Shown: positions 2,854 through 29,194 of the stretch, one piece after another | Layout: each line of letters opens with the position of its first letter | Position numbering within the stretch: position 1 is the first letter of the stretch | NCBI GenBank assembly: GCA_964478755.1 | Contig: CAYZJP010000006.1 | Span: 5,350-69,349 of the forward strand | Reading direction: 5' to 3' | Length of the DNA stretch: 64,000 nt | Source: an uncultured Klebsiella sp. | GTDB lineage: Bacteria > Verrucomicrobiota > Verrucomicrobiia > Limisphaerales > SXTU01 | Made by a program: the position numbers and the translations under genes | The notes under the pieces: generated by a model | Seen by the model: the letters and a program-made list of their open reading frames with translations, nothing else | Databases searched by the model: none | What the model was told of the DNA's origin: nothing

Positions 2854-3492
2854 CTACGCCGGCTTGTCTGCCGCCATCACCATCGTCATCCAGAGAAATG
2901 GGACGCGACCCGCGCCGCGGAATTGGAAGTTCGAGAAACCCGCCTCGGTGAGCAACTGCGTGAATGTGCGGCGGCTCCAGAACTTGATGTGGCCGCAATC
3001 CCATAGCGGGGAGTGGTGGGAATCCCACTTGCCGGTTAAGGCGATGGCGAGGTTCTTTAAATATCCGTGGTAGGGAGTGGTGCAGATTAATCGCCCGCCG
3101 GGCTTCAAGGCGCGGTGGCAGCTCCGCACGTAGCTGCGCGGGTCGTAGAGATGCTCCACAACTTCCGTGCTGATGATGAAATCGAACGGTTCCCCGCCGA
3201 GCCGCGCGAGCAGGTCATCTGTGGCCGATACCAGCTCGAAGCGGCATTGTGGATACGCGCGCCGGGCCGTCTCAATCCCGGACTGGCTCAAGTCGGTGCC
3301 CGTCACTTGGCAGCCGAGCTTCGCAAACTCCCCGCAAGTGAAACCATTGCCGCAGCCCACATCCAGCACCCGCGCGCCAGCCAGCCGTTCGCGCGCGCCA
3401 CACAACTCAAGCACCTTCGGCATGAAATGCCGGTGCATATGAGAAGCGCCCGCACCGTGGAAGTTGTATTGGAGGTAGGCGGAATCAGCCAT
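2854..3492 (-). CDS. Class I SAM-dependent methyltransferase
   Basis: ORF 2854..3579. Motif I is VLDVGCGNGF and the post-I region is LKPGGRLI. Start trimmed to the ATG at 3492 (MADSAYLQ). Confidence 0.85.
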   Translation of the reverse strand: MADSAYLQYNFHGAGASHMHRHFMPKVLELCGARERLAGARVLDVGCGNGFTCGEFAKLGCQVTGTDLSQSGIETARRAYPQCRFELVSATDDLLARLGGEPFDFIISTEVVEHLYDPRSYVRSCHRALKPGGRLICTTPYHGYLKNLAIALTGKWDSHHSPLWDCGHIKFWSRRTFTQLLTEAGFSNFQFRGAGRVPFLWMTMVMAADKPA

Positions 3493-3508
3493 GTAAACAG
3501 TGGTGGCG

Positions 3509-4693
3509 TTACGCGCGCGAAGCCGCAAGGATGCGTGTGTATTCGTTCTGGATGCGTGTGGCCACGGCGGGCCAGGCAAAATTCCGCTCGATCAGCTCGC
3601 GTGCACGTTGCGCGAAGACAACGGGCGGCTCCGCAGACCGAAGGAGCCGTGTTAGTGAAGCGGCGACGGAGGTGACTTCCATCGGCGGAACTTCGCCCAA
3701 CTGGTGCCGTGCGACCCAGCCGGCCAGCGCCACGCCGGGCGTGACCACCACGGGCAGTCCGCCCGCCAGCGCTTCGAGGATGACGAGGCCGAAGTTCTCG
3801 GAGTGTGATGTAAGCGCGAACACATCCGCGCCCTGGAGCAGAGTTTGCTTCCAGTCGCCGGTGGCGAAGCCAACACGCCGGGTCCGCGCCGCCATGCCTG
3901 ACTCGTTGAGCAGTTGCGTAATGCGTGCTTCGTATGTCGGCGACTCAACATTGCCGGCAAGCACGAAACAAAGCGACTCGGCCTTGATCCGGGCGAGCGC
4001 GGAGATGAGAAGTTCCAACCCTTTTTTCGGGTGGACGCGAGACAGGAACAAAACAATCCGCGCTTCCGGCTTCAAGCCCAGTTTTTCCCGCAGCCGTATC
4101 CGCACGTCTGGCAGCGGAGCGGGTAGTTCGATGCCGTGTGAGGCGACAAATCCCGGTGCGCGCAAGCCCAGTCCGACCGCCTCTGCCTGTTCCTGCTCGG
4201 TCATGTAGTGGATTGCCGCCGCCCCATCCAAATTGGCACGTTCGACCAGTGCGAGGTAGATCTGTTTTTTCCAAGCACGGCACTGCAACGACCATAGGCA
4301 GAGCTGGCCCAATGGACGGCTCAAATAAGGCACGCGTTGCCGCCGGGCGGCGCACATGGCCCGGGTGGAGGCGTAGGAGAACACCGCATGCACGTGAACC
4401 AAATCGTAGCTGCGGAGGGTGCCGTCGAGCCAGCGACCGAGTGGAGATGAGCAGGCAAATTCCCGGAGCGAACGCAGGGGCGGCGAGAAGCGAGGGAAAA
4501 ATCGAACGGGAGCGCCATCGAACTCCGACAGTTGACCGAGCGGCACGTCCAAGACGCCCTCACCATCGTCATTCGTGGCGGCGATCTCAGCGTCCACACC
4601 TCGCGCCCGCAGCGCCTTGACCGTGGCCGTCACCGCGAGGCTGGGACCGCCGCGACTCGGCGAAACCGAAGGTATGACATGGAGGACGCGCAT
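3509..4693 (-). CDS. Glycosyltransferase family 4 (GT-B)
   Basis: N-terminus MRVLHVIPSVSPSRGG; C-terminal EX7E-type region SENFGLVILEALAGGLPVV. Confidence 0.85.
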   Translation of the reverse strand: MRVLHVIPSVSPSRGGPSLAVTATVKALRARGVDAEIAATNDDGEGVLDVPLGQLSEFDGAPVRFFPRFSPPLRSLREFACSSPLGRWLDGTLRSYDLVHVHAVFSYASTRAMCAARRQRVPYLSRPLGQLCLWSLQCRAWKKQIYLALVERANLDGAAAIHYMTEQEQAEAVGLGLRAPGFVASHGIELPAPLPDVRIRLREKLGLKPEARIVLFLSRVHPKKGLELLISALARIKAESLCFVLAGNVESPTYEARITQLLNESGMAARTRRVGFATGDWKQTLLQGADVFALTSHSENFGLVILEALAGGLPVVVTPGVALAGWVARHQLGEVPPMEVTSVAASLTRLLRSAEPPVVFAQRARELIERNFAWPAVATRIQNEYTRILAASRA

Positions 4694-4714
4694 TCGCACG
4701 ACCCACTTGGCCGC

Positions 4715-4912
4715 TCAAAACAGTGTGTATATGAACGGGGCCGCCGCCGTGCCCCCCAAGATGAGCAGCACGCCGATCGCCAGCAACGCCAGCAGCAATG
4801 GAATGAGCCAGTATTTCTTGTTCTCGCCGAGAAAGGCGATGAACTCTTTCACGAGGCCAGCCTGCTGCTGCTGATTGGCCCGCTCGAACTCGTTGGGTGG
4901 TTGCTCGCTCAT
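4715..4912 (-). CDS. DUF5989 / SxtK-like small membrane protein
   Basis: 65 aa starting at the internal ATG of ORF 4715..5023: MSEQPPNEF...KKYWLIPLLLALLAIGVLLILGG. It has a single TM segment and starts 4 nt after the SxtJ-like stop. Confidence 0.7.
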   Translation of the reverse strand: MSEQPPNEFERANQQQQAGLVKEFIAFLGENKKYWLIPLLLALLAIGVLLILGGTAAAPFIYTLF

Positions 4913-4916
4913 AAAA

Positions 4917-5357
4917 TCAGAATTGGCTGAAGTAGCGCCCCGGGTTGGACGTTGGCGGCGCTTCGAACCAGTAAGTTTTCGCCTGCGGGTCGGGCGTCTT
5001 GCGAATGGGCTGGCCACCGCCAAGTCGCTTCAGCAAACCGATGCCTGTCACCAGCACATAGAAAAGCAGTGCCAGCACGACGTTGCCGACGACAAGCCCG
5101 ATGCAGCAGGCCAGCCCATACCAGAGGACGTAGAACGGACCGGCCACAGCCGGCACGGCGTAAAAAAGCAGGCCAGTGCCGGCTCCGATGCCTCCAAGCT
5201 TCAGGGCGAAGCTGACGTCCGCGCCCTCGCCGCGCAACCAGCCGACGGCGAGGAAAACCAGCGCCAAGCAGGGGAAACCGATCATAAGGCTTTTCCCAAA
5301 CGTGCGACGCGCGGCCGTATCCGGGTTCCAGTTAACTTCTTTGAAGGGATTCAGCAT
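4917..5357 (-). CDS. SxtJ-like membrane protein
   Basis: 146 aa, MLNPFKEVNWNPDTAARRTFGKSL followed by several hydrophobic segments. This family is usually found next to O-carbamoyltransferases. Confidence 0.7.
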   Translation of the reverse strand: MLNPFKEVNWNPDTAARRTFGKSLMIGFPCLALVFLAVGWLRGEGADVSFALKLGGIGAGTGLLFYAVPAVAGPFYVLWYGLACCIGLVVGNVVLALLFYVLVTGIGLLKRLGGGQPIRKTPDPQAKTYWFEAPPTSNPGRYFSQF

Positions 5358-5384
5358 ACATTCGCTTTATCGGCCAAAGCAGAT

Positions 5385-6308
5385 TCAAGCCACAACCGCC
5401 AGAAACGTAGCACTTGGAAAATCGCCCGGCCCCACGGCCAGACCATCCGTTTGCAAGGCGGGTTCGTAGTGCGGCAACAAAGCCCGCAGTTTTTCCCCAG
5501 CCAAATAATGTAAACAGGACAAGGACACCTGAAGGCAAAATCGGCTGTTATGCGCGAGAAATGCATGCAGCAGCACGGATTCATGCTGGAAAAAAAGCGC
5601 GCCTGACAGGACGTGGCGATCGTAATCGTAGGGAAATAAGATGTCATGGAAGTGGACTCGCGCTCCTTTCTTGAGGCGGGGCAACCACTCCAGAATAATT
5701 CGGCTGACTTCTCCCGCTGGACCGAGTGTGTGGGTAGAGTCCACAAACAGCAGAGCTTCTGGTCCAAGCGTCTCGATATCCGTCAGCGGCAGATCTTGAG
5801 CCCGGCGGGAAATCAGGCGGATGGTGCCGTTGTCAGCTAGGTGCCTGAGGTAGATTGTCGGGTATGGTTCCACGCAGGTGATTTGCGGCTGATAGCCAGC
5901 ATGAGCAGCGGCCGCGATACACACAGCCGTTGAGACACCGCAACCCACTTGGAGAATCTCCGACGGACGTTGCGTAGCGATGTAGGCGAAGAGAAAATCC
6001 GCTTCGGCTCGTCCGTAACCGGGCTCGCCGTTTGCCTTACACGCTGCTCCGTGAACATCCACCCCTCGCAGATGCTCTACCAGTGCGGGCGTGAGACAGC
6101 CCCTAAGCATGTCCAATTGACTCTCGACCGCTGCCCCAGTCACACCCTTCATCGTATAAGGGCGACGCCACGAAGAATCCGCCCGCAGCTCGCGAAGGTT
6201 CGGGATCTCCGAGTAAAAGTGACGCGGAAGGATATCGAAGCCTGCGCGCTGTCCAAGTTCAAAACCCTTCCAGAGGCAGGCCTTGAGTAGATTTTTTAGT
6301 GGTCGCAT
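5385..6308 (-). CDS. Class I SAM-dependent methyltransferase
   Basis: ORF 5385..6449 trimmed to the ATG at 6308 (MRPLKNLL), because the upstream part of the ORF is an alternate frame of the repeat scar. SAM motif ILQVGCGVST. Confidence 0.75.
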   Translation of the reverse strand: MRPLKNLLKACLWKGFELGQRAGFDILPRHFYSEIPNLRELRADSSWRRPYTMKGVTGAAVESQLDMLRGCLTPALVEHLRGVDVHGAACKANGEPGYGRAEADFLFAYIATQRPSEILQVGCGVSTAVCIAAAAHAGYQPQITCVEPYPTIYLRHLADNGTIRLISRRAQDLPLTDIETLGPEALLFVDSTHTLGPAGEVSRIILEWLPRLKKGARVHFHDILFPYDYDRHVLSGALFFQHESVLLHAFLAHNSRFCLQVSLSCLHYLAGEKLRALLPHYEPALQTDGLAVGPGDFPSATFLAVVA

Positions 6309-6327
6309 TCGATTCCGAAAGTGTGAC

Positions 6328-6525
6328 TCAATCCAGCTTGAAGCTCTCGATGTGTTTCTTGCGCGCAGATTCATCCTGCTGGGGCTGTTCGGTGCGGCGC
6401 AGGACGCAGTTCTCCAGCACCAGCACAACCGCAAGGCACGGAAAGCCAATCACCAAGCTCCTGGCAAAAGTGCGCCGCGTCGCTAGGTCCGGGTGCCAGT
6501 TGACTTCTTTGAAGGGATTGAGCAT
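6328..6525 (-). pseudogene. In-frame chimera: sxtJ-like 5' end (~33 codons) fused to carbamoyltransferase 3' end (~32 codons)
   Basis: The 65-aa ORF is MLNPFKEVNWHPDLATRRTFARSLVIGFPCLAV + VLVLENCVLRRTEQPQQDESARKKHIESFKLD. The two halves match the N-terminus of 4917..5357 and the C-terminus of 8917..10767. Confidence 0.8.
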
Positions 6526-6528
6526 TGG

Positions 6529-7461
6529 TCAGGTGAGATTCGCCTTGTGGACAAAGAACATGTCACGCTCACTGCTGGCGTTGATCGCAGCGGCTTGCTT
6601 CATGCCCGTGGAATCAATGTGAAACGGCACATAGGACGCCAGCGCAACTTGGCTTTGCAATCCGCGCTCAAACCCCGGCAGCACTTCCAGCGTAAGGTCC
6701 GGCTTCCACTTATCAAGAATCGAAGCGAGCGCACCCAGAATCAAAGCCTCGGCTCCCTCGGCATCGATCTTGATCAGCGACCGGCCCGGACTCAGCATCG
6801 ACTCCAACGATTTAGCGGATATGATCGGGACATGGCGCTGGCGGATCTCCGAGGAGAACTGGGCAGAAAACTCCCGCAACAGGGAACCGTTGGTCAAGTG
6901 GCCTTGCGGCTCATGAAAGGCAGCGACGCCCCCCTCGGTTCCGACCGCGCACTTCAGCGCCTGCACCGCTTGGAAATCGTTCAGTTTCAAGTTCGTTTGC
7001 AGCCGCCAGTAGGCTTCATCCGAGGGCTCAAAGCAAAAGATCCTGTCCAATGATTTTCCGTGCCGTTGAAACAAGGTGGCGAAGAACAACGTGAAGATGC
7101 CGACATTGGCACCGATCTCAATGATGGTGTCGTAAGTCGGGATTCGGCTGCCAAGAGCCTGGAAAACTGAGCTTTCATAAGTGATCTCCCGGCGGAACAA
7201 GGCTTCCGCGTCAAATTCTCCCAGGTGTGGCTGAATGAGGAATTCAACATTGTGAGCCACGCGCACACGTTTGGGAGGCAGCTCAACCTCGGGCCAATGC
7301 GCGGCCTGCACACTGTTCTGCAACTGTTGGAGGTGTCGCCCCGGCGACAGACAGCGAGCGACACATGAAAGCGCCCGCAAATAGGCACCCGCAACCAGGC
7401 GGGGAGCACGTGCCACAGACTGGTGCCAATGTCTGCCGATGCTGCGATAGAGGGCTGACAT
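6529..7461 (-). CDS. FkbM family methyltransferase
   Basis: ORF 6529..7596 trimmed to the ATG at 7461 (MSALYRSI). FkbM motifs are IIEIGANVGIFT, FCFEPS and KIDAEGAE. The start overlaps the stop of the upstream fragment as TGAGATG. Confidence 0.85.
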   Translation of the reverse strand: MSALYRSIGRHWHQSVARAPRLVAGAYLRALSCVARCLSPGRHLQQLQNSVQAAHWPEVELPPKRVRVAHNVEFLIQPHLGEFDAEALFRREITYESSVFQALGSRIPTYDTIIEIGANVGIFTLFFATLFQRHGKSLDRIFCFEPSDEAYWRLQTNLKLNDFQAVQALKCAVGTEGGVAAFHEPQGHLTNGSLLREFSAQFSSEIRQRHVPIISAKSLESMLSPGRSLIKIDAEGAEALILGALASILDKWKPDLTLEVLPGFERGLQSQVALASYVPFHIDSTGMKQAAAINASSERDMFFVHKANLT

Positions 7462-7462
7462 C

Positions 7463-7759
7463 TCAGTCCAGCTTGAAGCTCTCGATGTATTGCTTCCGCA
7501 CGGACTCATCCTGCTGCGGCTGTTCGGTGCGGCGCAGGACGGAGTTCTCCAGCACGAGCGCGTCCATGTCCGACGCCATGAAGCAGCGGTAGGCATCCTC
7601 GGGCGTGCAGACGATCGGCTCGCCCCGGATGTTGAAGCTGGTGTTGATGATGACCCCGCAGCCGATCTGGCGCTTGAACTCTTTCATCAGCCGCCAGTAG
7701 CGACCGTGCCGCTCCTCGTCCACGGTCTGAAGGCGGGCGCTCATGTCCACATGTGTGAT
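7463..7759 (-). pseudogene. Detached 3' fragment (last 98 codons + stop) of a carbamoyltransferase gene
   Basis: The C-terminal part of ORF 7463..8425 reads ITHVDMSARLQTVDEERHGRYWRLMKEFKRQIGCGVIINTSFNIRGEPIVCTPEDAYRCFMASDMDALVLENSVLRRTEQPQQDESVRKQYIESFKLD. This matches the last 98 aa of 8917..10767 at 93 of 98 positions. Homology stops at about 7759, and the rest of that ORF is an alternate frame of the AT3 gene. Confidence 0.85.
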
Positions 7760-7788
7760 GATTGACAATGCAAAACTTTCCCATCCCG

Positions 7789-8892
7789 TTAACTCGGACC
7801 GAAGCGGTCCCGGAGCCAGCGGCGGACGTGTCCGGTATGCCGCTCGAAACAATAATAAATCCCCCAAGAGGCGGCGAGCACCGCAATCAGCTTGAGTATC
7901 AGGCTGACACACGAAGCCAAATCCACCTGTCTGCGACCGGGGAAATAGAATACCCATAAGCCCAGCATCACGTAGTGCGTGAGATAAAGTGTGTAGGAAA
8001 AATCCGCCCAGAACTTTCCGTGCCGTTCCAAACGGCTCACGGATTCCGAACCCGGTTGCCAAGCAGACAACACATGGACCATCAGGACAAAACCACTTGC
8101 CAGAATCAAGACAGACGTAGCCATATTCGGAATCCACCTCTGCCAAATAGTGATATTCACGGAAACGGTCCCGCTGTTCAACTGAGTCAAGACCATTCCG
8201 ATGCCGGCCAGCAAAAGTCCAACCAGCAACAAGCAGACGCGTCGCGTGACCGCCCCCAATTGATGGGCCACCGCCCCTGATAGCCAGCACCCGAGGTAAT
8301 GGACAGCGCCCATTTGGCATAGCACCGCCAAACTTGTGGCGGTCAACATAAGAAAAGCGACCCGCGCGTGGAACGATCCCGCGGTCGTGGTCGCAAGCGC
8401 GCAACCCCACAGAACATAAAACCACATTTCAAACGCCAGAGACCATAACGGCGCGTTGCCGCCAAAGACTCCGATAGTGGAAAACACTCCTTGCAATCCG
8501 AACAGATTGCCCGCCAACTCCATTCCCGATACTTCTCTTCGCTGGAGTAACGTGGCGAGCGCGGTCAGCCCCAAGGCAGGAACTAGGGGCACGTAAATAC
8601 GTGTGACGCGATCCAGCCAGTAAGCCGAGACATTGAAACGACCTTCGACAGCGCGCTGCAAAGACCGACCCCCGACCAGATAACCACTCAAAACAAAAAA
8701 TACCACAACGGCTTCGTGTCCAAGACGGGATAAGGCAAAAGCCAGTGCCGTCATCCAGCCTTTGTCATCCGAAGACAACGCGCCATATTCCAAGAAATGT
8801 GCCCCCCTGACGTGGCAGAGGAGCACCTGAAAGGCAGCCAAGAAACGGATCCAATCCAGCCAGTAATATCGATTTGTCTCAGAACAGTGCAT
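7789..8892 (-). CDS. Acyltransferase family 3 (AT3) membrane O-acyltransferase
   Basis: 367 aa, polytopic, with N-terminal AT3 signature YWLDWIRFLAAFQVLLCHV. No fused SGNH domain. Confidence 0.85.
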   Translation of the reverse strand: MHCSETNRYYWLDWIRFLAAFQVLLCHVRGAHFLEYGALSSDDKGWMTALAFALSRLGHEAVVVFFVLSGYLVGGRSLQRAVEGRFNVSAYWLDRVTRIYVPLVPALGLTALATLLQRREVSGMELAGNLFGLQGVFSTIGVFGGNAPLWSLAFEMWFYVLWGCALATTTAGSFHARVAFLMLTATSLAVLCQMGAVHYLGCWLSGAVAHQLGAVTRRVCLLLVGLLLAGIGMVLTQLNSGTVSVNITIWQRWIPNMATSVLILASGFVLMVHVLSAWQPGSESVSRLERHGKFWADFSYTLYLTHYVMLGLWVFYFPGRRQVDLASCVSLILKLIAVLAASWGIYYCFERHTGHVRRWLRDRFGPS

Positions 8893-8916
8893 TGAGAATC
8901 TCCGTGAGTCGGATAA

Positions 8917-10767
8917 CTAATCTAGTTTGAAGCTCTCGATGTATTGCTTCCGCGCGGACTCGTCCTGCTGCGGCTGCTCGGTGCGGCGCAGGACGCAGTT
9001 CTCCAGCACGAGCACATCCATGTCCGAGGCCATGAAGCAACGGTAAGCGTCCTGGGGGGTGCAGACAATCGGCTCGCCACGGATGTTGAAGCTGGTGTTG
9101 ATGATGACCCCGCAGCCGGTCTGGCGTTTGAACTCCTTCATCAGCCGCCAATATCTTCCATGCCGCTCCTCGTCCACAGTCTGGAGGCGCGCGCTCATGT
9201 CCACGTGCGTGATCGCCGGCAGCGTGGAGCGCGGCACATTCACGCGCTTGCGAAGGTCGGGATCTTTCATCAACTGCCGCTGCTCCGATGTGAGCGGAAG
9301 CCAGTGCTCTTTCTTCACGTCGGCCACCATGAGCATATAGGGCGACTCGCGGTCGTGGTCGAAATACTTCTGCACGTCCTCGATGAGCACACACGGGGCG
9401 AAGGGCCGGAAGCTCTCGCGGAACTTGATGCGCAGGTTCATCTGCGACTGCATCGCCGGGCTGCGGGCATCGCCGATGATGCTGCGCGCCCCAAGCGCAC
9501 GCGGGCCGAACTCCATCCGCCCGCTGAACCAGCCGACGACTTTTTCGGAGGCCATCTCCTGCGCGACGGCTTCGAGCAGCGCGGGCTCCTGCTCGTAAAA
9601 CGTGTAGCGGACTTGCTTCCCGTCGAGGAAGGCGCGGATTTCCTCGTTCGAGAACTTCGGGCCGAGCAGCGAGCCTTTGAGCGAATCCTTCCGCGCGGCG
9701 ACGTGCGTGCGCGGCTGGTCGAGCAACTGGTGATGGACGAAGAGCGCCGCGCCCAGCGCGCCGCCGGCATCGCCGGACGCGGGCGTGGCGAACACGTCGT
9801 CGAAGATTTTTTCCCGGAGCAATTTTCCGTTTGCGACGCAGTTGAGCGCGACGCCACCGGCGAGGCAGAGATTTTTGCTGCCGGTCAGTTCCTTCGCATG
9901 CCGGGCCATGCGCAGGACGACCTCCTCCGTGACTTTCTGAATCGAGGCGGCAATGTCCATCTCTCGCTGCGTGATGGCAGTTTCGGGATTGCGTGCAGGA
10001 CCGCCAAAGAGCGAGGCGAACTTGTCGTTCGTCATCGTGAGGCCCTGACAGTAGTTGAAATAGCTCATGTCCATCGCGAGCGAGCCGTCGGGCTTCACGT
10101 CCACGAGGTTCTTGAGGATGGTGTCCACAAAGCGCGGCTCGCCGTAGGGCGCAAGGCCCATGAGCTTGTATTCGCCGGAGTTGACCTTGAAGCCACAGAA
10201 GTAGGTGACTGCGCTGTAGAGCAGGCCGAGCGAATGCGGGAAATGCAGTGTCTTGAGAATTTTGATCTTGTTCCCCTGGCCGTGGCCGATGGTCGCCGTG
10301 TCCCATTCGCCGACGCCGTCGAGCGTGAGGATGGCCGCGTCCTCGTAGCGCGACGGGAAGAAGGTGCTGGCCGCGTGCGACTCATGGTGGCCGGTGAACG
10401 CGATGCGCTTCGTGTAGCGCCCGCCAAGCGCCTTCCGAATCTCGCGCGGAAGGTGCAGCTTGGTTTTCAGCCACAACGGCATCGCCATGAGAAAGGATTG
10501 GAAGCCTTCCGGCGCGAAGGCGAGGTAAGTCTCCAGCAGACGGTCGAACTTGAGCAGCGGCTTGTCGTAGAAGACGACGTAGTCGAGTTGTTCGGGCATG
10601 AGGCTAGCTTCGCGCAGGCAGTAGTCCACCGCGTGCGTGGGGAACTCGTGGTCGTGCTTGATGCGCGTGAAGCGTTCCTCCTGCGCGGCGGCGACAATGT
10701 CGCCGTCCACGACCAGCGCGGCGGCGCTGTCGTGGTAGAACGCGGAGAGGCCGAGGATGGCGGGCAT
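8917..10767 (-). CDS. Carbamoyltransferase (NodU/CmcH/SxtI family)
   Basis: 616 aa with GLSAFYHDSAAALV, HHESHAAS and C-terminal VIINTSFNIRGEPIV. Full-length copy of the sequence repeated at 7463 and 6328. Confidence 0.9.
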   Translation of the reverse strand: MPAILGLSAFYHDSAAALVVDGDIVAAAQEERFTRIKHDHEFPTHAVDYCLREASLMPEQLDYVVFYDKPLLKFDRLLETYLAFAPEGFQSFLMAMPLWLKTKLHLPREIRKALGGRYTKRIAFTGHHESHAASTFFPSRYEDAAILTLDGVGEWDTATIGHGQGNKIKILKTLHFPHSLGLLYSAVTYFCGFKVNSGEYKLMGLAPYGEPRFVDTILKNLVDVKPDGSLAMDMSYFNYCQGLTMTNDKFASLFGGPARNPETAITQREMDIAASIQKVTEEVVLRMARHAKELTGSKNLCLAGGVALNCVANGKLLREKIFDDVFATPASGDAGGALGAALFVHHQLLDQPRTHVAARKDSLKGSLLGPKFSNEEIRAFLDGKQVRYTFYEQEPALLEAVAQEMASEKVVGWFSGRMEFGPRALGARSIIGDARSPAMQSQMNLRIKFRESFRPFAPCVLIEDVQKYFDHDRESPYMLMVADVKKEHWLPLTSEQRQLMKDPDLRKRVNVPRSTLPAITHVDMSARLQTVDEERHGRYWRLMKEFKRQTGCGVIINTSFNIRGEPIVCTPQDAYRCFMASDMDVLVLENCVLRRTEQPQQDESARKQYIESFKLD

Positions 10768-10775
10768 CGTGATGG

Positions 10776-12056
10776 TCAGGGCTTGGCTTGAACCGGCACT
10801 GATTGCAGCAGCTTGGAACGGAGGACAGCCTCCGCGATGACTTGGTGCCCTTCGGCAGTCGGATGCGCGTCTTTCAGGAAGTGGAGCCAGCGCCCCGTTT
10901 TCTGGTGCAATTCACGCATCGGGGTCTGCGCGTCAACAAACCCGATGCCCAAGTCCTGGCAGTAACGGGAGACACGCCGGGTCGTGGCCTCGGGATCGTA
11001 TCGCTCGCTTGGAAAGGTGGCCTTGCGCAAATCGTCGTAAACTTGGGGTAGATAAGGGATGCCAGTCACGATCAGCTTCGCTCCCTGCCGATCCGCCTCG
11101 GTCTTGAGACCTTGTAGCAAGGCCTTGAACAGACGATGCTGATATTCGTGCGCGGGCGAGATTTCCTTCTCCATGACAATCTCCATGTTCGGCCACAAAG
11201 ACTGCCCTCCAACGCGCACCCTTGCGCCGATCATCAACATGAACTTCGAGCGGCGCAGTTGACGAAACGTGGCACTCTGATCACAGAGTCGGCGCACGGA
11301 CATTGCGAAGGTTAAATTGTGCCCGTATTCTTTGGCTGCCTCCTGCCGGGCAGGGATCCAGTGCTTCGGCACTAGTTTGCCCTGCTCGTCGAAGTCAAAG
11401 TAGTCGCGCTCCCGGTCGCCGCCGTAAATCCAACCGCCCCGGCCCGGCGGCAGGAGGTCATAAAAATCCGTCGCGTAAGACAGGCCGACGACCACATAGT
11501 GCGGCTTGAGGCGTGGTCCGTCGTCTCGCAGGCGGGACAAATACTGATGGAGGCTGTAGCCGGTGGTGCCTGCGTTGAACGTGCGGAAGATGTCGCTTCC
11601 GGCAGCGGCATTGAGCTGTTGCTCAAGCTGCTTGGCCCAGGTCTGGGTGGTGGAAATGCCGGTGGCGAACGTGTGCGAATCGCCCAGGATGAGCACACGC
11701 GTCTTCGCCACGTCCCCCGCCAAGTTTTCCTCACGGTCGTTCATGAAATGGGCGTTCACCCGGCCCGCAGCCACATACTCAGGAGTCCGATGAAGGTAGT
11801 CACCCGGCGCGGGCTTCCACCCCCAGTGCGGATCGTCTACCCAATGAGCCCCCTCGAAACTGGTTCGGCTCAATTCCCGCGCTTCCAGAATCCTGAACGC
11901 GGCCTCGGCGAGTATCGAGGCCAAGCCCAATCCCAGAAGCAAAGCAATCAAGCCGAAAACTAGCCGACGCCGACGAGACCGTCCTGGTTGGGGGGGCGCG
12001 TTCATATTTGCTGGGATGGGGCTGACAAAAGACAGTGCAAAATTCTCCGTGTTCAT
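10776..12056 (-). CDS. Membrane-anchored SGNH/GDSL hydrolase-fold protein
   Basis: ORF 10776..12161. It has an N-terminal TM segment (LVFGLIALLLGLGLASILA), block I VLILGDSHTF, block II FNAGTTGYS and a C-terminal DAHPTAEGH. The start is either the ATG at 12056 or the one at 12005. Confidence 0.75.
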   Translation of the reverse strand: MNTENFALSFVSPIPANMNAPPQPGRSRRRRLVFGLIALLLGLGLASILAEAAFRILEARELSRTSFEGAHWVDDPHWGWKPAPGDYLHRTPEYVAAGRVNAHFMNDREENLAGDVAKTRVLILGDSHTFATGISTTQTWAKQLEQQLNAAAGSDIFRTFNAGTTGYSLHQYLSRLRDDGPRLKPHYVVVGLSYATDFYDLLPPGRGGWIYGGDRERDYFDFDEQGKLVPKHWIPARQEAAKEYGHNLTFAMSVRRLCDQSATFRQLRRSKFMLMIGARVRVGGQSLWPNMEIVMEKEISPAHEYQHRLFKALLQGLKTEADRQGAKLIVTGIPYLPQVYDDLRKATFPSERYDPEATTRRVSRYCQDLGIGFVDAQTPMRELHQKTGRWLHFLKDAHPTAEGHQVIAEAVLRSKLLQSVPVQAKP

Positions 12057-12317
12057 CGTGCGAACGCGGGGCAAGACTAGTTGGACGCTAGACTGGAAAG
12101 CAAGCTCATCGCACTGATTTGTCAGCGGCCGCTTCTCCAATGTATTGGCCGTGCAGGGCATCGCAACCCAGCCGACTCATCGCCCTTCCCGGCCCACTGT
12201 CATCCACGGATTTGCGGTCGGCAGGGTTTCACCACCAATAGCCAAGCCACTCCCGTCACCTGGCGGCAGGGGCAGGCGCTGTCGTTTCCAGAAATCTCCG
12301 ATGGACAGGCGTCAGTT

Positions 12318-13451
12318 TCACGGCTGACTGGCTGAAGCGGCCGGCGTGCCCGGCTTGAGAATTGTTTTCTTCAATTCTTCGGCCAGCACATCGGCGCCAA
12401 GTGCCGTTACGTGGACTCCTGATTGGATGAAGCACTCTCTTCGTTGAGGGTGCTTCTCGAAGACCGCCGCGGCATCACAGATGGCAACGCCCTCTTCGCG
12501 TCCAATCGCCACAACGCGTTCGCGCCATTCTCGGACTCCATAAGTTAAATACCAGTTAGGGTCGCCGTTGTCACCGAAGCGTAAAATGACGGGTGTAGCC
12601 CCCTGCTCGCGGATGAACTTGAGATAGGCGCGCAGGGTCTTTTCAAGATTGGCCATCACATACGGGTGCTGTGTGGGGTGATGCACGGGCCGTTCACTCA
12701 AGACCGGCTCCCGATATTCTGCGGTGGCCTGCCTTTCGAACAGCTTCTTGATTCGATAATCCCACAGACGGACCAGCGCGCTGTGGCGAATCCAGAATCC
12801 GGCCTGGCCGAGATTCGTGGGCACGACGGACCAGCGCTGCTCCTTGAACAACCGGTCCAGCATGCCATGATCTTGCCGCGTGAACTGCTCAGCGGACTGC
12901 CCCTCGTTGACGCCCGCGAACAGCACGACGTAATCCGGTCGGAGCTGGGGAATCAGCCGGCGGCCCAGGGCAAACTCATGCGACAAGGCGAAACAAATCT
13001 GCCCTGCGTTCATCACCTCATCTTGGCTGTGGCCTGGCACCGCGCGTAACTTGCGCTGGAGAACACTCGGCCAGGCACCGTCTGTGTCCAGATTGTAACA
13101 GAACGTCGTCGAGCCGCCCGAGCAATAGATGCGCGTCGCCCCTTTGGGCTTGGTCGCGGGGAAGTCCTCGCGGTTGCGCAGGCCCCAGTTGTTCAGGAGC
13201 GAGTTCGAGTTATAGGCGTTGCGCCGGTGTGTGGCACCGAGTTCAGGGTCGGGCTCGTAGAGGCCGTAGCTCTTGCCAGGCACGCCATACTTGAAGTGGA
13301 TGACCACGCGCAGAGCCACTTCCCCGACCAGCAGCAGCACAACGATCAGTGCCGGCACTAGGCCAACGGCTAGCATCGCGAAGGTTCGCCTGCGATTCGG
13401 CACGAGAGGTTCGGCCGAGGATGAATTTGACTGTTCGCTATTTTGCTTCAT
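12318..13451 (-). CDS. Membrane-anchored SGNH-like protein (divergent catalytic blocks)
   Basis: ORF 12318..13634 trimmed to the ATG at 13451 (MKQNSEQ). TM segment FAMLAVGLVPALIVVLLLV; block I-like CSGGSTTF; block III-like LFAGVNEG. Confidence 0.65.
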   Translation of the reverse strand: MKQNSEQSNSSSAEPLVPNRRRTFAMLAVGLVPALIVVLLLVGEVALRVVIHFKYGVPGKSYGLYEPDPELGATHRRNAYNSNSLLNNWGLRNREDFPATKPKGATRIYCSGGSTTFCYNLDTDGAWPSVLQRKLRAVPGHSQDEVMNAGQICFALSHEFALGRRLIPQLRPDYVVLFAGVNEGQSAEQFTRQDHGMLDRLFKEQRWSVVPTNLGQAGFWIRHSALVRLWDYRIKKLFERQATAEYREPVLSERPVHHPTQHPYVMANLEKTLRAYLKFIREQGATPVILRFGDNGDPNWYLTYGVREWRERVVAIGREEGVAICDAAAVFEKHPQRRECFIQSGVHVTALGADVLAEELKKTILKPGTPAASASQP

Positions 13452-15257: not shown

Positions 15258-16145
15258 TCAGGCGTGAGGCCGAGTGGCGACGAGGTCGCTTCCCCCGGCC
15301 GTTTGAACGGCAGTGCCGGGCGTTTTGCCCGCAAGGTAATCCTTCACTGGCTGCAAACGAAATCCTTGCTCCAACAGAAACCTTTGGGCCGCGCCGGGTG
15401 TTATCCCGCTCTCAGGCCGTTTTTCCGCCCAGTCGTTGAACTCGAACACAACCACGGGTGCGGGTTCCTGACGCAGCAAACCGACAGCCCCCTGAAACAC
15501 GCCGAGTTCGAAACCCTCCACGTCAACCTTGATTAAATCCACCGATGATAATCCGTGCCGCGCGACTGCTGTGTCCAAACTCATGGTTGGCACCGCCACT
15601 CCGCTCCCACCGAACCGACAAGCAAGGGAACCCATTCCGAATTTAGCCTCTGGGGCGTCGTGGAACATGATGGTGTCCCCCTCCTTTTGTGTGACGGCGT
15701 AGTTTAGCGGGGTAAAATTGGCCAGCCGGTTCACCGCTGCGTTCGCGGACAGGTATTGGAAGATGGCAGGTGAAGCTTCGAATCCCAAGACCCGTCCATC
15801 CGGACAGCACGCTTGGGCCGCCCACAGCGACATGGCTCCGATGTTCGCCCCGACATCCAAGAAAGTTCCTGCCCGCCGCAGTGCCCGCTGGATTACTGCG
15901 CAGGTATCGCGGTCATAGCAGCCGTCTGTGAGCAGATGAAACGCTATCGGCTCGAGTAATGAAGGCGCCCGATAAATCAGCCCGGTCGTTTGAATCTCCA
16001 CAGATCCTGCCGACATCACCAAGTTTGTTATTGCACGGGCCAGCTTTGTCCTGCCCGGCAGGCGGTGGGGCATGCACCGTAAAAGATACAGCCAGCGAGG
16101 GATGGGTTGGCAGGCTGGAAATCTTATGGCTGAGGAACATTCCAT
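15258..16145 (-). CDS. FkbM family methyltransferase
   Basis: Motifs FLDVGANIGAMS, LGFEASP and IKVDVEGFE. Confidence 0.85.
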   Translation of the reverse strand: MECSSAIRFPACQPIPRWLYLLRCMPHRLPGRTKLARAITNLVMSAGSVEIQTTGLIYRAPSLLEPIAFHLLTDGCYDRDTCAVIQRALRRAGTFLDVGANIGAMSLWAAQACCPDGRVLGFEASPAIFQYLSANAAVNRLANFTPLNYAVTQKEGDTIMFHDAPEAKFGMGSLACRFGGSGVAVPTMSLDTAVARHGLSSVDLIKVDVEGFELGVFQGAVGLLRQEPAPVVVFEFNDWAEKRPESGITPGAAQRFLLEQGFRLQPVKDYLAGKTPGTAVQTAGGSDLVATRPHA

Positions 16146-26104: not shown

Positions 26105-27253
26105 CTAGGCGGACTTTGCACAGTTCAACATGCGCAGCACGGGCGCGAACTGCGTCTCATAATTCCACTCATCAAGGATGCGTTGCCGCCCGCTGGCCCG
26201 TGCGGCTTCGGCCTCCACCGGGTGGTCGAGAAACCAGCTCACCGCCCCGGCGATGCTCCGGCCATCAGTCGGGTCGCAGGTGCGAGCGTAGCCCGGTTCC
26301 ACGAACAATGTGCGCCAGTCCGGAAGATCGGACACGAGTAGATTCAATCCGCAGGCGAGGTAGTCAAACGGCTTGTTCGATGCCCCGGTCATCGCGCGCA
26401 TGTTCAGGTCGCCGCTCGCAGCCGGCATGAAGGCGAGGCCGATGTCTGCACGAGCACAGTAGGGAAGCAAGTCGTGCCGACGACTGAACGCCCCGAGAAA
26501 TTTCACTCGTCCCGTTAAGTTCAGCCGCCCGGCTTCCGCCAAGAACTCCGTGATATAGTTGCGGTTGCCCTCGGTGGTGTATCCCGCGATTTCTAAGCTG
26601 ACGCGGTCTGGCAGTCGTGTGAGGGCGTGGACAACAGAGATTGGTAAGCGAAGCGCGTTGATCGAGCCGTGGTAAAAGAGCGTGCATCCGCCAACTCGTT
26701 TCCGTAATGGAAGCACATCGCGCTTGCCCGGGCAGTTCCAAACCGTCAGCACGGGGCACGCCGGGCGAACCGTCTCAGCAAATACTCGCGCCCGCTCCGC
26801 GTTGGGGAGCACGACGGCGGCGGCGCGCTGGCAGAGCCGGCGGCGCGCGCCAAGGATGCGGCGGAAGAAGGGCGTGGCATCGTTCACCGTCGGCGAATCA
26901 TGCTCATGGTAAATCACGCGCCGGCCTGGCAGCCGGCCGGCCAGCCAGGCCGCCGGGCACGTGAGAGGTTCGGACGCGTAAATCCATCGCGCACCGCTCC
27001 GCCACGAACGCCACCAAGTCCACAGGCAGAAGCCGGTGAAGTGCGCCTTCTGCCGCCAGCCGGGACCGGAGTAACGCCACCTCTCCGTGCGAATGCGCGG
27101 GTGCGGCTCAAATTGAAACGCATCCGCCTCGCCCAAAGCCCCGCTGCCGAGGAAGAGCACTTCCCAGCCGCAGTCAGCGAGAATCCGCGAGCTGTGCTCC
27201 AGAGGAGGATAGCCCGCCGGGTTGGTGTATTGGACATAGAGGATGCGCCTCAC
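26105..27253 (-). CDS. Glycosyltransferase (GT4-like)
   Basis: ORF 26105..27280. Start set to the GTG at 27253 (VRRILYVQYTNPAGYPP), which forms a GTGA overlap with the AT3 stop. Shows the GT-B C-terminal half. Confidence 0.7.
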   Translation of the reverse strand: MRRILYVQYTNPAGYPPLEHSSRILADCGWEVLFLGSGALGEADAFQFEPHPRIRTERWRYSGPGWRQKAHFTGFCLWTWWRSWRSGARWIYASEPLTCPAAWLAGRLPGRRVIYHEHDSPTVNDATPFFRRILGARRRLCQRAAAVVLPNAERARVFAETVRPACPVLTVWNCPGKRDVLPLRKRVGGCTLFYHGSINALRLPISVVHALTRLPDRVSLEIAGYTTEGNRNYITEFLAEAGRLNLTGRVKFLGAFSRRHDLLPYCARADIGLAFMPAASGDLNMRAMTGASNKPFDYLACGLNLLVSDLPDWRTLFVEPGYARTCDPTDGRSIAGAVSWFLDHPVEAEAARASGRQRILDEWNYETQFAPVLRMLNCAKSA

Positions 27254-28374
27254 GCCGGCTGCCTCCGCGCGGTGAACCATCCGTTCACGATCCTCCGGAC
27301 TTCCTCCGTGCGCCGCTCAAACAGCCACCAGACCAGATGTGATCCCGCGAGCGTGAGCGCCACGACGCCGGCATAGACCGCGAAGCCCACCGCGCCGGGC
27401 TGCCATTGCCGGCCTTGCAGCACGCCGAAGGAAAGGAAGGCGAGGAACGGGAAGTGAAAGAGGTAGAGCGTGTAGGAGGTGTTGCCAAAATACCGCGCCG
27501 GCCCGCGCCACCAACCGGTCCCGCCCGTGTCCGCCGCCAGCCGCGGCAACGTGGCCGCAAAGGCTGGCGCGATCCAGTAGTCCGCGCCCGCCAGCCCGCG
27601 CCACCGGTTCCACAAGAGCACGCCGCCCAAGCCAAGCAGCGCGCCCCAGAACACCGGAGCCGAGCGCGCCAGCTTTGCAATGCGCGAACGGCTGAACACG
27701 TAGGCCGCATATCCCGCCAGCCACATCAGGCCTGCGAGCAGAAAACCAACCGGCAGGAACACACCCGCCGCCAGCAGCAGCACGAGGAAGAACAGCCGTC
27801 CTCGCACGGGAGTCGTTCGGTGGCACATCGCGAATCCGAGGGGAAACATCAGATAATACCAGAACTCGTTCGCGAGCGACCACAGCGGGCCGTTGCTCCC
27901 GAAGGTCCGCACGACGATGGTTTGCAGAAAGCAGACATTGCCGAGCAGGGCGAGGACGCCGCTGTCCGCCGGCTCCGCCGTCGAGGGGCCGGAATGGATT
28001 CGCTCGTAATAGCGGCCATCGTAGCCCGCCCCGCCGCTCAACGTCCCGCCGGCCAGGTCCCAGCCCAGCGTCAGCGCCAGCGCCGGCAGCAGCACCAGCC
28101 AGAGCCGCGTCATCCGCCGCAGCGCGTAGTCCCCGAAGCTCCACCGGTTCGTCGCGAACCGCTCATGCACCGCGCCGCCGATCAGAAAGCCGCTCAGGAC
28201 AAAGAAGATGACCACGGCCTGGTGGCCGAAGCCCGTCAGCCCGTAGAAGGCGTCCGTCACGACGTTGCGCTCGGACACGGCGAAGTGTTCCACGAAGAGA
28301 AACGCGCGCAGGTGGCCGAGCAGGACCGCCAGCGCCGCCATGCCCCGCACGAGGTCAAGCTTGTCGAGCCGCAT
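27250..28374 (-). CDS. Acyltransferase family 3 (AT3) membrane O-acyltransferase
   Basis: 374 aa, MRLDKLDLVRGMAALAVLLGHL, polytopic, with no SGNH domain. G+C is much higher than in the paralogue at 7789. Confidence 0.85.
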   Translation of the reverse strand: MRLDKLDLVRGMAALAVLLGHLRAFLFVEHFAVSERNVVTDAFYGLTGFGHQAVVIFFVLSGFLIGGAVHERFATNRWSFGDYALRRMTRLWLVLLPALALTLGWDLAGGTLSGGAGYDGRYYERIHSGPSTAEPADSGVLALLGNVCFLQTIVVRTFGSNGPLWSLANEFWYYLMFPLGFAMCHRTTPVRGRLFFLVLLLAAGVFLPVGFLLAGLMWLAGYAAYVFSRSRIAKLARSAPVFWGALLGLGGVLLWNRWRGLAGADYWIAPAFAATLPRLAADTGGTGWWRGPARYFGNTSYTLYLFHFPFLAFLSFGVLQGRQWQPGAVGFAVYAGVVALTLAGSHLVWWLFERRTEEVRRIVNGWFTARRQPA

Positions 28375-29194
28375 GGGGTTGGGGGGATTCCCGCCGCGCC
28401 ACGACCTCGCCGTAGTTCTCGATCCGTCGCACCGGCGCGCCGTCGAGATGCTCGACCACGTAGCCGTGCCGGGCCAGCCGGTTTAGCAGGGAATCGCTGC
28501 TGGTGCCGCAGTAATGCCAGTTGTAGGGATGCACTTCTATGTAGATTCGGCGCGGGGATCGAGCGGCATCACGCAGCAGGGTATCCGCACCTTCGAGAAC
28601 CTCTTCTTCGAAGCCCTCCACGTCCACCTTGAGGATGTCCACGCGACGGTTTGCAAAATAGGTATCCAGCCGCATCACTGGCACTTCATGGGAGCCGGGT
28701 GTGCCTGCGGGCACGATCTGGTTCTGAATATCCTTCCCCCCGCTGAAGCTGATGCGTCCGTCCTGCGCGCCGACCGCCGCGTTGACAACCGTCAATTGCG
28801 ACTCCACTCCGTTGAACTTTGCATGAGTTTCCACCCATCTGTGATTCGCTGGATCAGGCTCAAACGCGATCACCCGCCCACCAGCTCCCACGCGTTTGGC
28901 TAACGCCACGGCATAAAGCCCAATGTGCGCACCCACATCTGCCACGGTATCGCCAGCCCGAAGATGGGACATGACGTGCCGCCACACGTCCGGCTCGTAG
29001 CTTTCGCCAAGATTGCGAAAGCGCGGCGCGATCAACATCCGGTCGGTGCCGTTGAGGTTGCGCTCCAGTCCTCGACGACCCAGACCGTTGACGATCCGGT
29101 CGTAAGCCGGCCGCGCCGCGTTCCACAACCAGTCCGCACGCTTCAGCCACACGCTGTGCCGCAGCCGCACACACGCCTGTTCAATCGCGTTCAT
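28355..29194 (-). CDS. FkbM family methyltransferase
   Basis: Motifs VADVGAHIGLYA, IAFEPDP and LKVDVEGFE. Confidence 0.85.
   Translation of the reverse strand: MNAIEQACVRLRHSVWLKRADWLWNAARPAYDRIVNGLGRRGLERNLNGTDRMLIAPRFRNLGESYEPDVWRHVMSHLRAGDTVADVGAHIGLYAVALAKRVGAGGRVIAFEPDPANHRWVETHAKFNGVESQLTVVNAAVGAQDGRISFSGGKDIQNQIVPAGTPGSHEVPVMRLDTYFANRRVDILKVDVEGFEEEVLEGADTLLRDAARSPRRIYIEVHPYNWHYCGTSSDSLLNRLARHGYVVEHLDGAPVRRIENYGEVVARRESPQPHAARQA

Follow-up and report, generated by a model that had tools for sequence, protein, structure and literature searches.

Background

Does the 65-codon open reading frame (ORF) at 6328–6525 on the minus strand encode something that this locus uses, or is it a scar left where two genes were joined? 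The window analysed here is the whole 64,000-nt stretch of contig CAYZJP010000006.1, and coordinates given without a contig refer to it. A preliminary description had read the ORF as an in-frame fusion of the start of an SxtJ-like gene and the end of a carbamoyltransferase (CT) gene, formed by a microhomology-mediated deletion. It had also proposed that the ORF might still be translated, either as a coupling relay for the downstream methyltransferase gene or as a small hydrophobic peptide.

Three known systems offer points of comparison. In the cyanobacterial saxitoxin cluster, the carbamoyltransferase gene sxtI is adjoined by two short uncharacterised ORFs, sxtJ and sxtK (PMC2885083), and the cluster also holds a GDSL-lipase gene, sxtL (PMC2684587). 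In Yersinia pseudotuberculosis, the tyv remnant of the Abe module has been attributed to two crossovers, one homologous and the other intragenic (PMC5399914). In homology-facilitated illegitimate recombination, the documented joins are 3–10 bp long (PMC6382021). Its other hallmarks are a homologous anchor at one end and uptake of the foreign DNA through RecA-dependent transformation.

Results

The ORF begins with ATG and encodes 65 aa, with the product MLNPFKEVNWHPDLATRRTFARSLVIGFPCLAVVLVLENCVLRRTEQPQQDESARKKHIESFKLD. Searching both halves within the window by tblastn bore out that the ORF joins the 5' end of an SxtJ gene in frame to the 3' end of a CT gene. Residues 1–36 resemble the N-terminal start of the 146-aa SxtJ-like protein at 4917–5357 (−) (75% aa identity, E 1e-15), and residues 34–65 correspond to residues 585–616 of the CT at 8917–10767 (−) (93.8% aa identity, E 2e-13). 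The SxtJ-derived share is the first 33–37 codons and the CT-derived share is the last 32, joined in frame; at the nucleotide level these parts are ~74% and ~88% identical to their respective parents in the window. The SxtJ-derived half (codons 1–33, 6427–6525, −) is 94.6% identical to the intact SxtJ start on contig L034, compared with 74% to 5257–5357. The CT-derived half (6328–6413, −) runs to the native CT stop, lies in a 101-nt triple repeat, and is collinear with the passage from the CT end into the Methyltransf_24 gene in L050, a relative described below.

The spacings given earlier were also correct. The TGA stop of the preceding FkbM gene (6529–6531) is separated by 3 nt from the ATG of the ORF (6523–6525), and its TGA stop (6328–6330) by 19 nt from the ATG of the Methyltransf_24 (MT24) gene (6306–6308). 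The ORF has all 11 invariant residues of the SxtJ-family N-terminus, and its residues 19–37 are hydrophobic, with a mean Kyte-Doolittle hydropathy of 2.1. It has no match in Pfam or NCBIfam. A PF19588 match over the ~100-residue multi-helix membrane domain that marks the SxtJ family is accordingly lacking, as is the pair of Carbam_trans_N and Carbam_trans_C domains that marks a CT, both from the ORF (last 32 CT residues) and from a second CT remnant at 7463–7760 (last ~99). Neither the ORF product nor P0003 has a recorded exact match.

On the minus strand, the genes run in the order SGNH, CT, AT3, CT remnant, FkbM, SxtJ'::CT' ORF, MT24, SxtJ, DUF5989, and GT4 onward. The intact CT (8917–10767, 616 aa; Pfam Carbam_trans_N 2e-96, Carbam_trans_C 4e-72) is of the type from which the repeated 3' ends derive, and it shares 89–96% aa identity with the CTs of Limisphaerales/Pedosphaera MAGs. 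It is followed by two extra cassettes, an Acyl_transf_3 (AT3) O-acyltransferase (7789–8892, −; PF01757 2e-19) and an FkbM-family methyltransferase of 310 aa (6529–7461, −; TIGR01444 2.5e-23), while the Methyltransf_24 O-methyltransferase (5385–6308, −; Pfam 1.5e-11) is the resident cassette of the backbone. The cassettes have a GC content of 55–57% compared with 62.6% for the CT. An SGNH/GDSL hydrolase gene (10776–12161, −) lies directly upstream of the CT; an SGNH gene also stands in this place in the relatives L047 and L050, although their copies do not align to the window's at the DNA level.

Between the two extra cassettes lies a third copy of the CT 3' end in the window, which had been overlooked before. 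This second-CT remnant (7463–7760, −) comprises the last ~99 codons and the stop, begins 28 nt past the AT3 stop, and ends 1 nt ahead of the true FkbM start. It is collinear with the CT 3' end of L034 and matches CT residues ~516–616 at 93% aa identity (E 6e-57, tblastn), and as DNA it is a 293-nt direct repeat of 8921–9213 at 90% identity. The remnant is an open frame for which gene callers give a 93-aa protein, P0007. The left internal junction is the 28-nt filler before it (7761–7788, −), a stretch with no match to CT or SxtJ; the sequence is homologous to L034 from 7760 onwards. The remnant also bears on the annotation of the FkbM gene. A 355-aa ORF at 6529–7596 was considered as this gene and rejected, as its 45 extra codons are the CT remnant in another frame. 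The true start is the ATG at 7461, which gives the length of the homologue P0010 (310 aa, 95% identical).

Downstream of MT24, the intact SxtJ-like membrane protein (4917–5357, −; 146 aa) scores 17.7 bits against PF19588, below the cut-off of 24.4. Among its aligned relatives, 23 of 27 match this family (best E 5e-10), and the gene has the expected neighbours, a CT upstream and a small DUF5989 (SxtK-type) protein downstream (4715–4915, −; PF19451 2.3e-19). Neither the SxtJ-like nor the DUF5989 protein has a match in NCBIfam. Across 26 SxtJ-like proteins, the 11 invariant columns all fall within residues 1–28, in the pattern MxNPFKEVNWxP...F...GF, and the PF19588 match starts only at residue 18, leaving most of these residues outside the model. 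Residues 1–28 are a conserved N-terminal motif that has so far gone unrecognised.

Elsewhere in the window, we observed a distant second CT paralogue at 48885–50627 (−) with 35% identity, a second Acyl_transf_3 at 27253–28359 (−), and two more FkbM-like matches at 28574–29002 (−) and 15441–15866 (−). Given these further CT, AT3, and FkbM-like matches, the window is largely a glycan-synthesis region.

The junction itself was located by a three-way alignment of the window with the SxtJ and the CT of L034. The window strand reads ...CCTTGCGGTT GTGCTGGTGCTGG AGAACTGC..., the L034 SxtJ reads ...CCTTGCGGTT GTGCTGCTGCTGG CTGGCGG..., and the L034 CT reads ...GACATGGAC GTGCTGGTGCTGG AGAACTGC.... The crossover block is therefore the 13-nt microhomology GTGCTGGTGCTGG at 6414–6426 (−). 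The site had been placed at about 6424–6430, which needs this correction, while the proposed microhomology in a run of GTG and CTG codons was recovered. Written as GTGCTG(G/C)TGCTGG, it matches at 12 of 13 positions between the parents and encodes V-L-(L/V)-L in both genes, so that the breakpoint coincides with sequence common to both. No other 13-mer of the L034 SxtJ recurs in the 3' 600 nt of the L034 CT with one mismatch or fewer, and the block lies in codon phase 0 in both parent genes. Because the microhomology is phase-matched in both parents, the fusion comes out in frame without any selection. The block also contains GCTGGTGC, which agrees with the E. coli Chi site GCTGGTGG at seven of eight bases; Chi sites vary between phyla, and the likeness may mean nothing.

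The surroundings of the ORF were then compared with those of relatives. A genome scan gave 30 loci, which on the basis of record titles and CT identity are essentially all from Verrucomicrobiota MAGs. Two relatives, L050 (GCA_974479545.1) and L047, carry the backbone AsnB-SGNH-CT-MT24-SxtJ-DUF5989-GT4-MT-GT2-ABC. L050 aligns to the window from 10773 to 8915 (the CT, 88.9%) and then from 6426 to 138 (75%, 6.3 kb). In blastn alignments with L050 and L047, the CT alignment stops at 8915 and collinearity resumes at 6426, leaving 2,488 nt (6427–8914, −) that are extra relative to the syntenic backbone. This segment contains the acyltransferase, the CT remnant, FkbM, and the 5' stub of SxtJ, and on either side of it the CT end recurs as an imperfect direct repeat of 101 nt (8919–9019 and 6330–6430; 88% identity). 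AT3 is absent from this place in both backbones. The ORF is the right-hand seam of this 2.5 kb of extra DNA.

A search of relatives for the unfused parental arrangement, as had been suggested, found it on both sides: CT-FkbM-SxtJ in L034, and CT-MT24-SxtJ in L012, L047, and L050. Each part of the ORF has a full-length intact homologue, and the unfused orders exist in relatives. On L034, a 2,059-nt JGI contig, the end of an intact CT is followed by FkbM and a complete 146-aa SxtJ; contig positions 303–1647 are 94.1% identical to window positions 7760–6414 over 1347 nt. A metagenome scan with FkbM found no relative, and this parent was reached through a protein search followed by contig look-up. 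On the other side, the MT24 homologues between CT and SxtJ in L012, L047, and L050 are 65–71% identical to that of the window, and neither the metagenome scan nor the protein search found one above 71%, so the CT-side parent is known by type only. The 96-nt CT part does not point to a nearest donor, since all CT ends of the clade are 88–94% identical. The closest backbone relative found reaches at best 75% at the nucleotide level, which we count against reading the ORF as a scar.

The fused form is not conserved outside its lineage: neither a search of 5.8 billion proteins nor the 30 related genome loci yielded an SxtJ-CT fusion orthologue. In relatives, the basic order is CT-SxtJ-DUF5989 with nothing between. 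In many loci, among them most of the closest relatives, CT and SxtJ are separated by an insert that is usually one gene. The inserts are Acyl_transf_3 genes of three unrelated kinds (L004/L005; L006; L007–L009), Methyltransf_24 (L012, L047–L051), FkbM (L034–L040), an SGNH hydrolase (L017, L021), or an MBOAT with an unknown gene (L023). At least seven different cassettes fill this place, and the AT3 of L006 is 52% identical to that of the window. Since relatives carry different genes there, the boundary between CT and SxtJ is a variable slot in Verrucomicrobiota of the Limisphaerales/Pedosphaera type. An integron-like cassette system was considered and rejected, as the cassettes have no flanking sites: no inverted repeats border them, and the spacers are 1–40 nt.

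Several side observations were made in these loci. Two short ENA contigs, L001 (596–709) and L002 (596–709, then 715–792), carry a CT remnant of ~37 codons, with an unrelated gene ~265 nt upstream and an SxtJ start 5 nt downstream; the remnant starts within a few codons of the window breakpoint. It looks like an independent loss of most of a CT. A further remnant of ~45 codons in L003 (196–363) has a start that overlaps an unrelated upstream stop as ATGA and is followed by an acyltransferase-like gene. CT 5'-end remnants were seen in L018 (6730–6900 and 10659–11038), L035 (1152–1250), and L036 (1817–1915), 1.3 kb upstream of full CT genes, suggesting that the upstream side of CT also gathers scars. 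L018 also has two tandem DUF5989 genes. In the Pedosphaera MAG L012, Methyltransf_24 (3120–4042) is split into two overlapping frames near 3662–3704, either by a frameshift or by an assembly error. Some taxon labels clash with content: L004, L005, and L008 are named 'uncultured Klebsiella sp.', L009 'Acidobacteria', and L011 and L023 'Proteobacteria', and their CTs share 89–94% identity with the copies in Limisphaerales MAGs, so the names probably stem from mistakes in binning or labelling.

Synonymous and non-synonymous divergence was estimated from Nei-Gojobori counts. The second-CT remnant gave the same values against the L034 CT and against the window's own CT (dS 0.53, dN/dS 0.05; 24 synonymous and 6 non-synonymous changes in each case), and the CT part of the ORF differs from the window CT by 9 synonymous and 2 non-synonymous changes (dS 0.61, dN/dS 0.045). 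Overall, the three CT ends differ from each other with a dS of 0.34–0.6 and a dN/dS of 0.05–0.2. This low dN/dS indicates that they are diverged alleles, shaped by strong constraint inside working CT genes of different lineages. Meanwhile, FkbM has a dS of only 0.13 against L034 (dN/dS 0.17; 26 synonymous, 15 non-synonymous), which points to a recent import, and the FkbM segment appears to share recent ancestry with the unfused locus. For the SxtJ stub (dS 0.11, dN/dS 0.33 against L034), the counts of 3 synonymous and 3 non-synonymous changes are too small to separate constraint from youth. The intact start, frame, and stop, the kept motif, and the lack of a non-synonymous excess count against a scar, but purifying selection and youth would explain them alike.

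These divergence values bear on one alternative, in which the interval from the CT end to the SxtJ start underwent an old tandem duplication within the genome, each copy later receiving cassettes. Such a duplication would yield exactly this kind of junction ORF, SxtJ-N::CT-C between a full CT and a full SxtJ. However, copies with a dS of 0.34–0.6 decaying neutrally in place should have gathered tens of non-synonymous changes, where 2–6 were found at a dN/dS of 0.05–0.2, and this pattern rules out an old in-situ duplication decaying neutrally. The FkbM-SxtJ' segment is also ~94–95% identical to an unfused locus elsewhere, and we regard the duplication as extremely improbable. A different concern is that the locus was misassembled, with coexisting strain variants of the types CT-AT3-SxtJ, CT-FkbM-SxtJ, and CT-MT24-SxtJ chained through their common CT ends. 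In its favour, the sequence comes from a metagenome and has three CT ends, and unitigs break at exact repeats of up to 32 nt. Because of one of these, the 32-nt exact repeat 6385–6416 = 8974–9005, we rely on the original assembler for connecting the last ~60 nt of the ORF to the gene downstream. In run X2, both flanks are present without mismatch, yet there is no contig for 6427–6562 (136 nt); at a depth of ~6, this gap may be a drop-out. Against a misassembly, chaining through shared sequence cannot make a new SxtJ'::CT or AT3-filler-CT junction, and both junctions lie within error-free unitigs. The right one is covered by a 1265-nt unitig of run X1, a rock metagenome, spanning 6391–7655, and the left one at 7760 by unitigs of X1 and of X2, which is from the same study (7635–8490/9007). 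The junction unitig has a depth of 7.1 compared with 7.4 and 6.9 for the flanking unitigs, and depth is even (5.4–7.4) over the single-copy segments. A sequencing error at the junction, which would have undone the fusion, is unlikely for the same reason: the X1 unitig is error-free at the depth of its flanks. The repeats are just 74–90% identical and shorter than typical reads, and the unfused FkbM-SxtJ continuation is not in X1. For the order of the segments we depend on the original assembler, whereas the chimeric junction is independent of it; a misassembly is highly improbable. The seam was confirmed in X1 alone, and the fusion is known solely from the X1/X2 study. In six other runs from freshwater and drinking-water metagenomes (X3, X5, X7, X8, X25, and X29), contigs follow the window through the end of FkbM and into the start of SxtJ, diverge from it exactly at 6414, and continue into an intact SxtJ of the L034 type. 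Only the unfused form was seen there, suggesting that this parent is widespread.

Two further alternatives would give the ORF a role. As a coupling relay, ribosomes would restart 3 nt past FkbM, read the 65 codons, and stop 19 nt before MT24, reproducing native CT-MT24 coupling, so that the resident methyltransferase would still be made. The ORF starts near the upstream stop and ends near the downstream start, and similar spacings occur in unfused loci: ~13–20 nt from the CT stop to the MT24 ATG in L012, L047, and L050, and 1 nt from the FkbM stop to the SxtJ ATG in L034. The genes of the locus follow each other closely on a single strand, no terminator motif separates them, and a scan of the remnants for promoter and terminator motifs found none. 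All four CT-end remnants found (two in the window, L001/L002, and L003, with its ATGA overlap) are open frames with start codons, which also counts against a mere scar. However, the in-frame state follows from the phase-matched microhomology and hence is no evidence of selection, open frames are commonplace in 63% GC DNA, and the ORF is a singleton without a conserved orthologue in the protein and locus searches. A relay role is unlikely, although preserved coupling to MT24 is plausible. The same doubt applies to a broader proposal, in which the 3' end of CT and the 5' start of SxtJ would be standing homology arms of a single-gene cassette slot, Verrucomicrobial lineages would swap and stack glycan-decorating enzymes through it, phase-matched microhomologies would keep the seams translatable and the stacked cassettes translationally coupled, and the ORF would be a retained relay; we consider this improbable too. 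As a small membrane peptide, the product would be a truncated SxtJ, with the motif and one helix, that modulates or competes with full-length SxtJ or CT. The ORF keeps residues 1–28 with all invariant columns of the 26 SxtJ-like proteins, and its stretch at residues 19–37 is hydrophobic. Yet motif retention is expected of a young remnant, the first transmembrane helix is cut and runs into the charged CT tail, the peptide has neither a Pfam or NCBIfam match nor an orthologue, and SxtJ itself is functionally uncharacterised (PMC2885083). Such a function is very unlikely. Neither proposed role was thus supported: the in-frame state is automatic, no fused orthologue was found, and the six metagenomes have the unfused form. 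The ORF may be translated, though incidentally only and into a product with no function of its own. Nucleotide-level elements gave no other reason for retention. Rfam had no match at E <= 1 over 4600–12400, and an element embedded in the CT 3' end was rejected because synonymous divergence is not lowered there (pS 0.40 in the last 32 CT codons vs 0.29–0.38 elsewhere, in five relatives).

Discussion

Taken with its surroundings, the ORF is most probably a recent recombination junction scar at the edge of a 2.5-kb two-cassette insertion, without a function of its own. The recipient would have been a Verrucomicrobial sugar-modification operon with the backbone CT-MT24-SxtJ-DUF5989-GT4-MT-GT2-ABC. 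Other variants of the locus would have contributed 2.5 kb of foreign DNA comprising AT3, the final 99 codons of a CT from elsewhere, FkbM, and ~33 codons from the start of the SxtJ next to it, and the right end of this DNA would have been joined to the resident CT 3' end at the 13-nt microhomology. Such a join would preserve both the SxtJ start, 3 nt past the FkbM stop, and the native CT stop, 19 nt before MT24. The route may have been homology-facilitated illegitimate recombination, or unequal crossover or deletion. The divergence of the CT ends suggests recombination between allelic variants from different lineages, and the similarity of FkbM to L034 suggests that the event was recent.

The earlier proposal of a microhomology-mediated deletion holds only in part. 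The microhomology is present, but a deletion was not established, since the window has a 2.5-kb insertion relative to the backbone and the CT ends resemble alleles. From the sequence comparisons, a join between two allelic variants of the locus would fit no worse than a deletion within a single genome. An insertion, an unequal crossover, and a deletion between once-complete tandem modules all give the same seam, and cannot be told apart from it.

The nearest known kind is a gene remnant at a recombination junction in a polysaccharide (O-antigen or capsule) cluster. As in the tyv/Abe case of Y. pseudotuberculosis (PMC5399914), a surface-glycan locus would have been rebuilt by a module swap between lineages, one crossover in shared sequence and another within a gene would have left a truncated gene at the seam, and the imported genes are lower in GC than the conserved ones. 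That case involves a sugar-pathway module, whereas the unit here is a single modifying enzyme within an operon. Two further differences are that two different genes form an intact chimeric ORF at the seam and that the host belongs to an uncultured Verrucomicrobial lineage.

As in homology-facilitated illegitimate recombination (PMC6382021), foreign DNA would lie beside a homologous anchor (CT, ~89%), with its other end joined at a microhomology, although the block here is 13 nt, 12 of them matching, against the 3–10 bp joins recorded there. The CT is a plausible anchor at 89% identity, but its crossover point is not mappable, and unequal crossover or deletion of a tandem module yields the same product. 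The arrangement of a full gene A, then a fusion with a 5' part from B and a 3' part from A, then a full gene B is also that of chimeras from tandem duplication and unequal crossover, but here the repeats come from diverged alleles rather than from the genome's own copy, and each unit has a different cassette.

The gene neighbourhood resembles the sxtI-sxtJ-sxtK triad (PMC2885083, PMC2684587) in having an O-carbamoyltransferase followed by two short ORFs, with a GDSL/SGNH gene nearby. In contrast to the saxitoxin cluster, the triad here lies within a glycosyltransferase and ABC-transporter locus with no sign of toxin synthesis, and the SxtJ-like protein of the window falls below the Pfam cut-off.

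Conclusions

On its own, the ORF matters little, and it should be annotated as a chimeric remnant and not as a gene. Two annotation fixes are also due, for the FkbM start and for the second CT remnant. The value lies in the context, which documents, with both parent orders in hand, the stacking of three modifying enzymes (one O-acyl and two O-methyl) beside a CT. It adds a fresh example of a junction remnant, from an uncultured phylum and at the scale of single genes, with both parents recovered, the CT-side parent by type. The boundary between CT and SxtJ is a recurrent site of gene turnover, and the link of SxtJ and DUF5989 to carbohydrate-modifying enzymes is a small clue to the role of the SxtJ/SxtK family.
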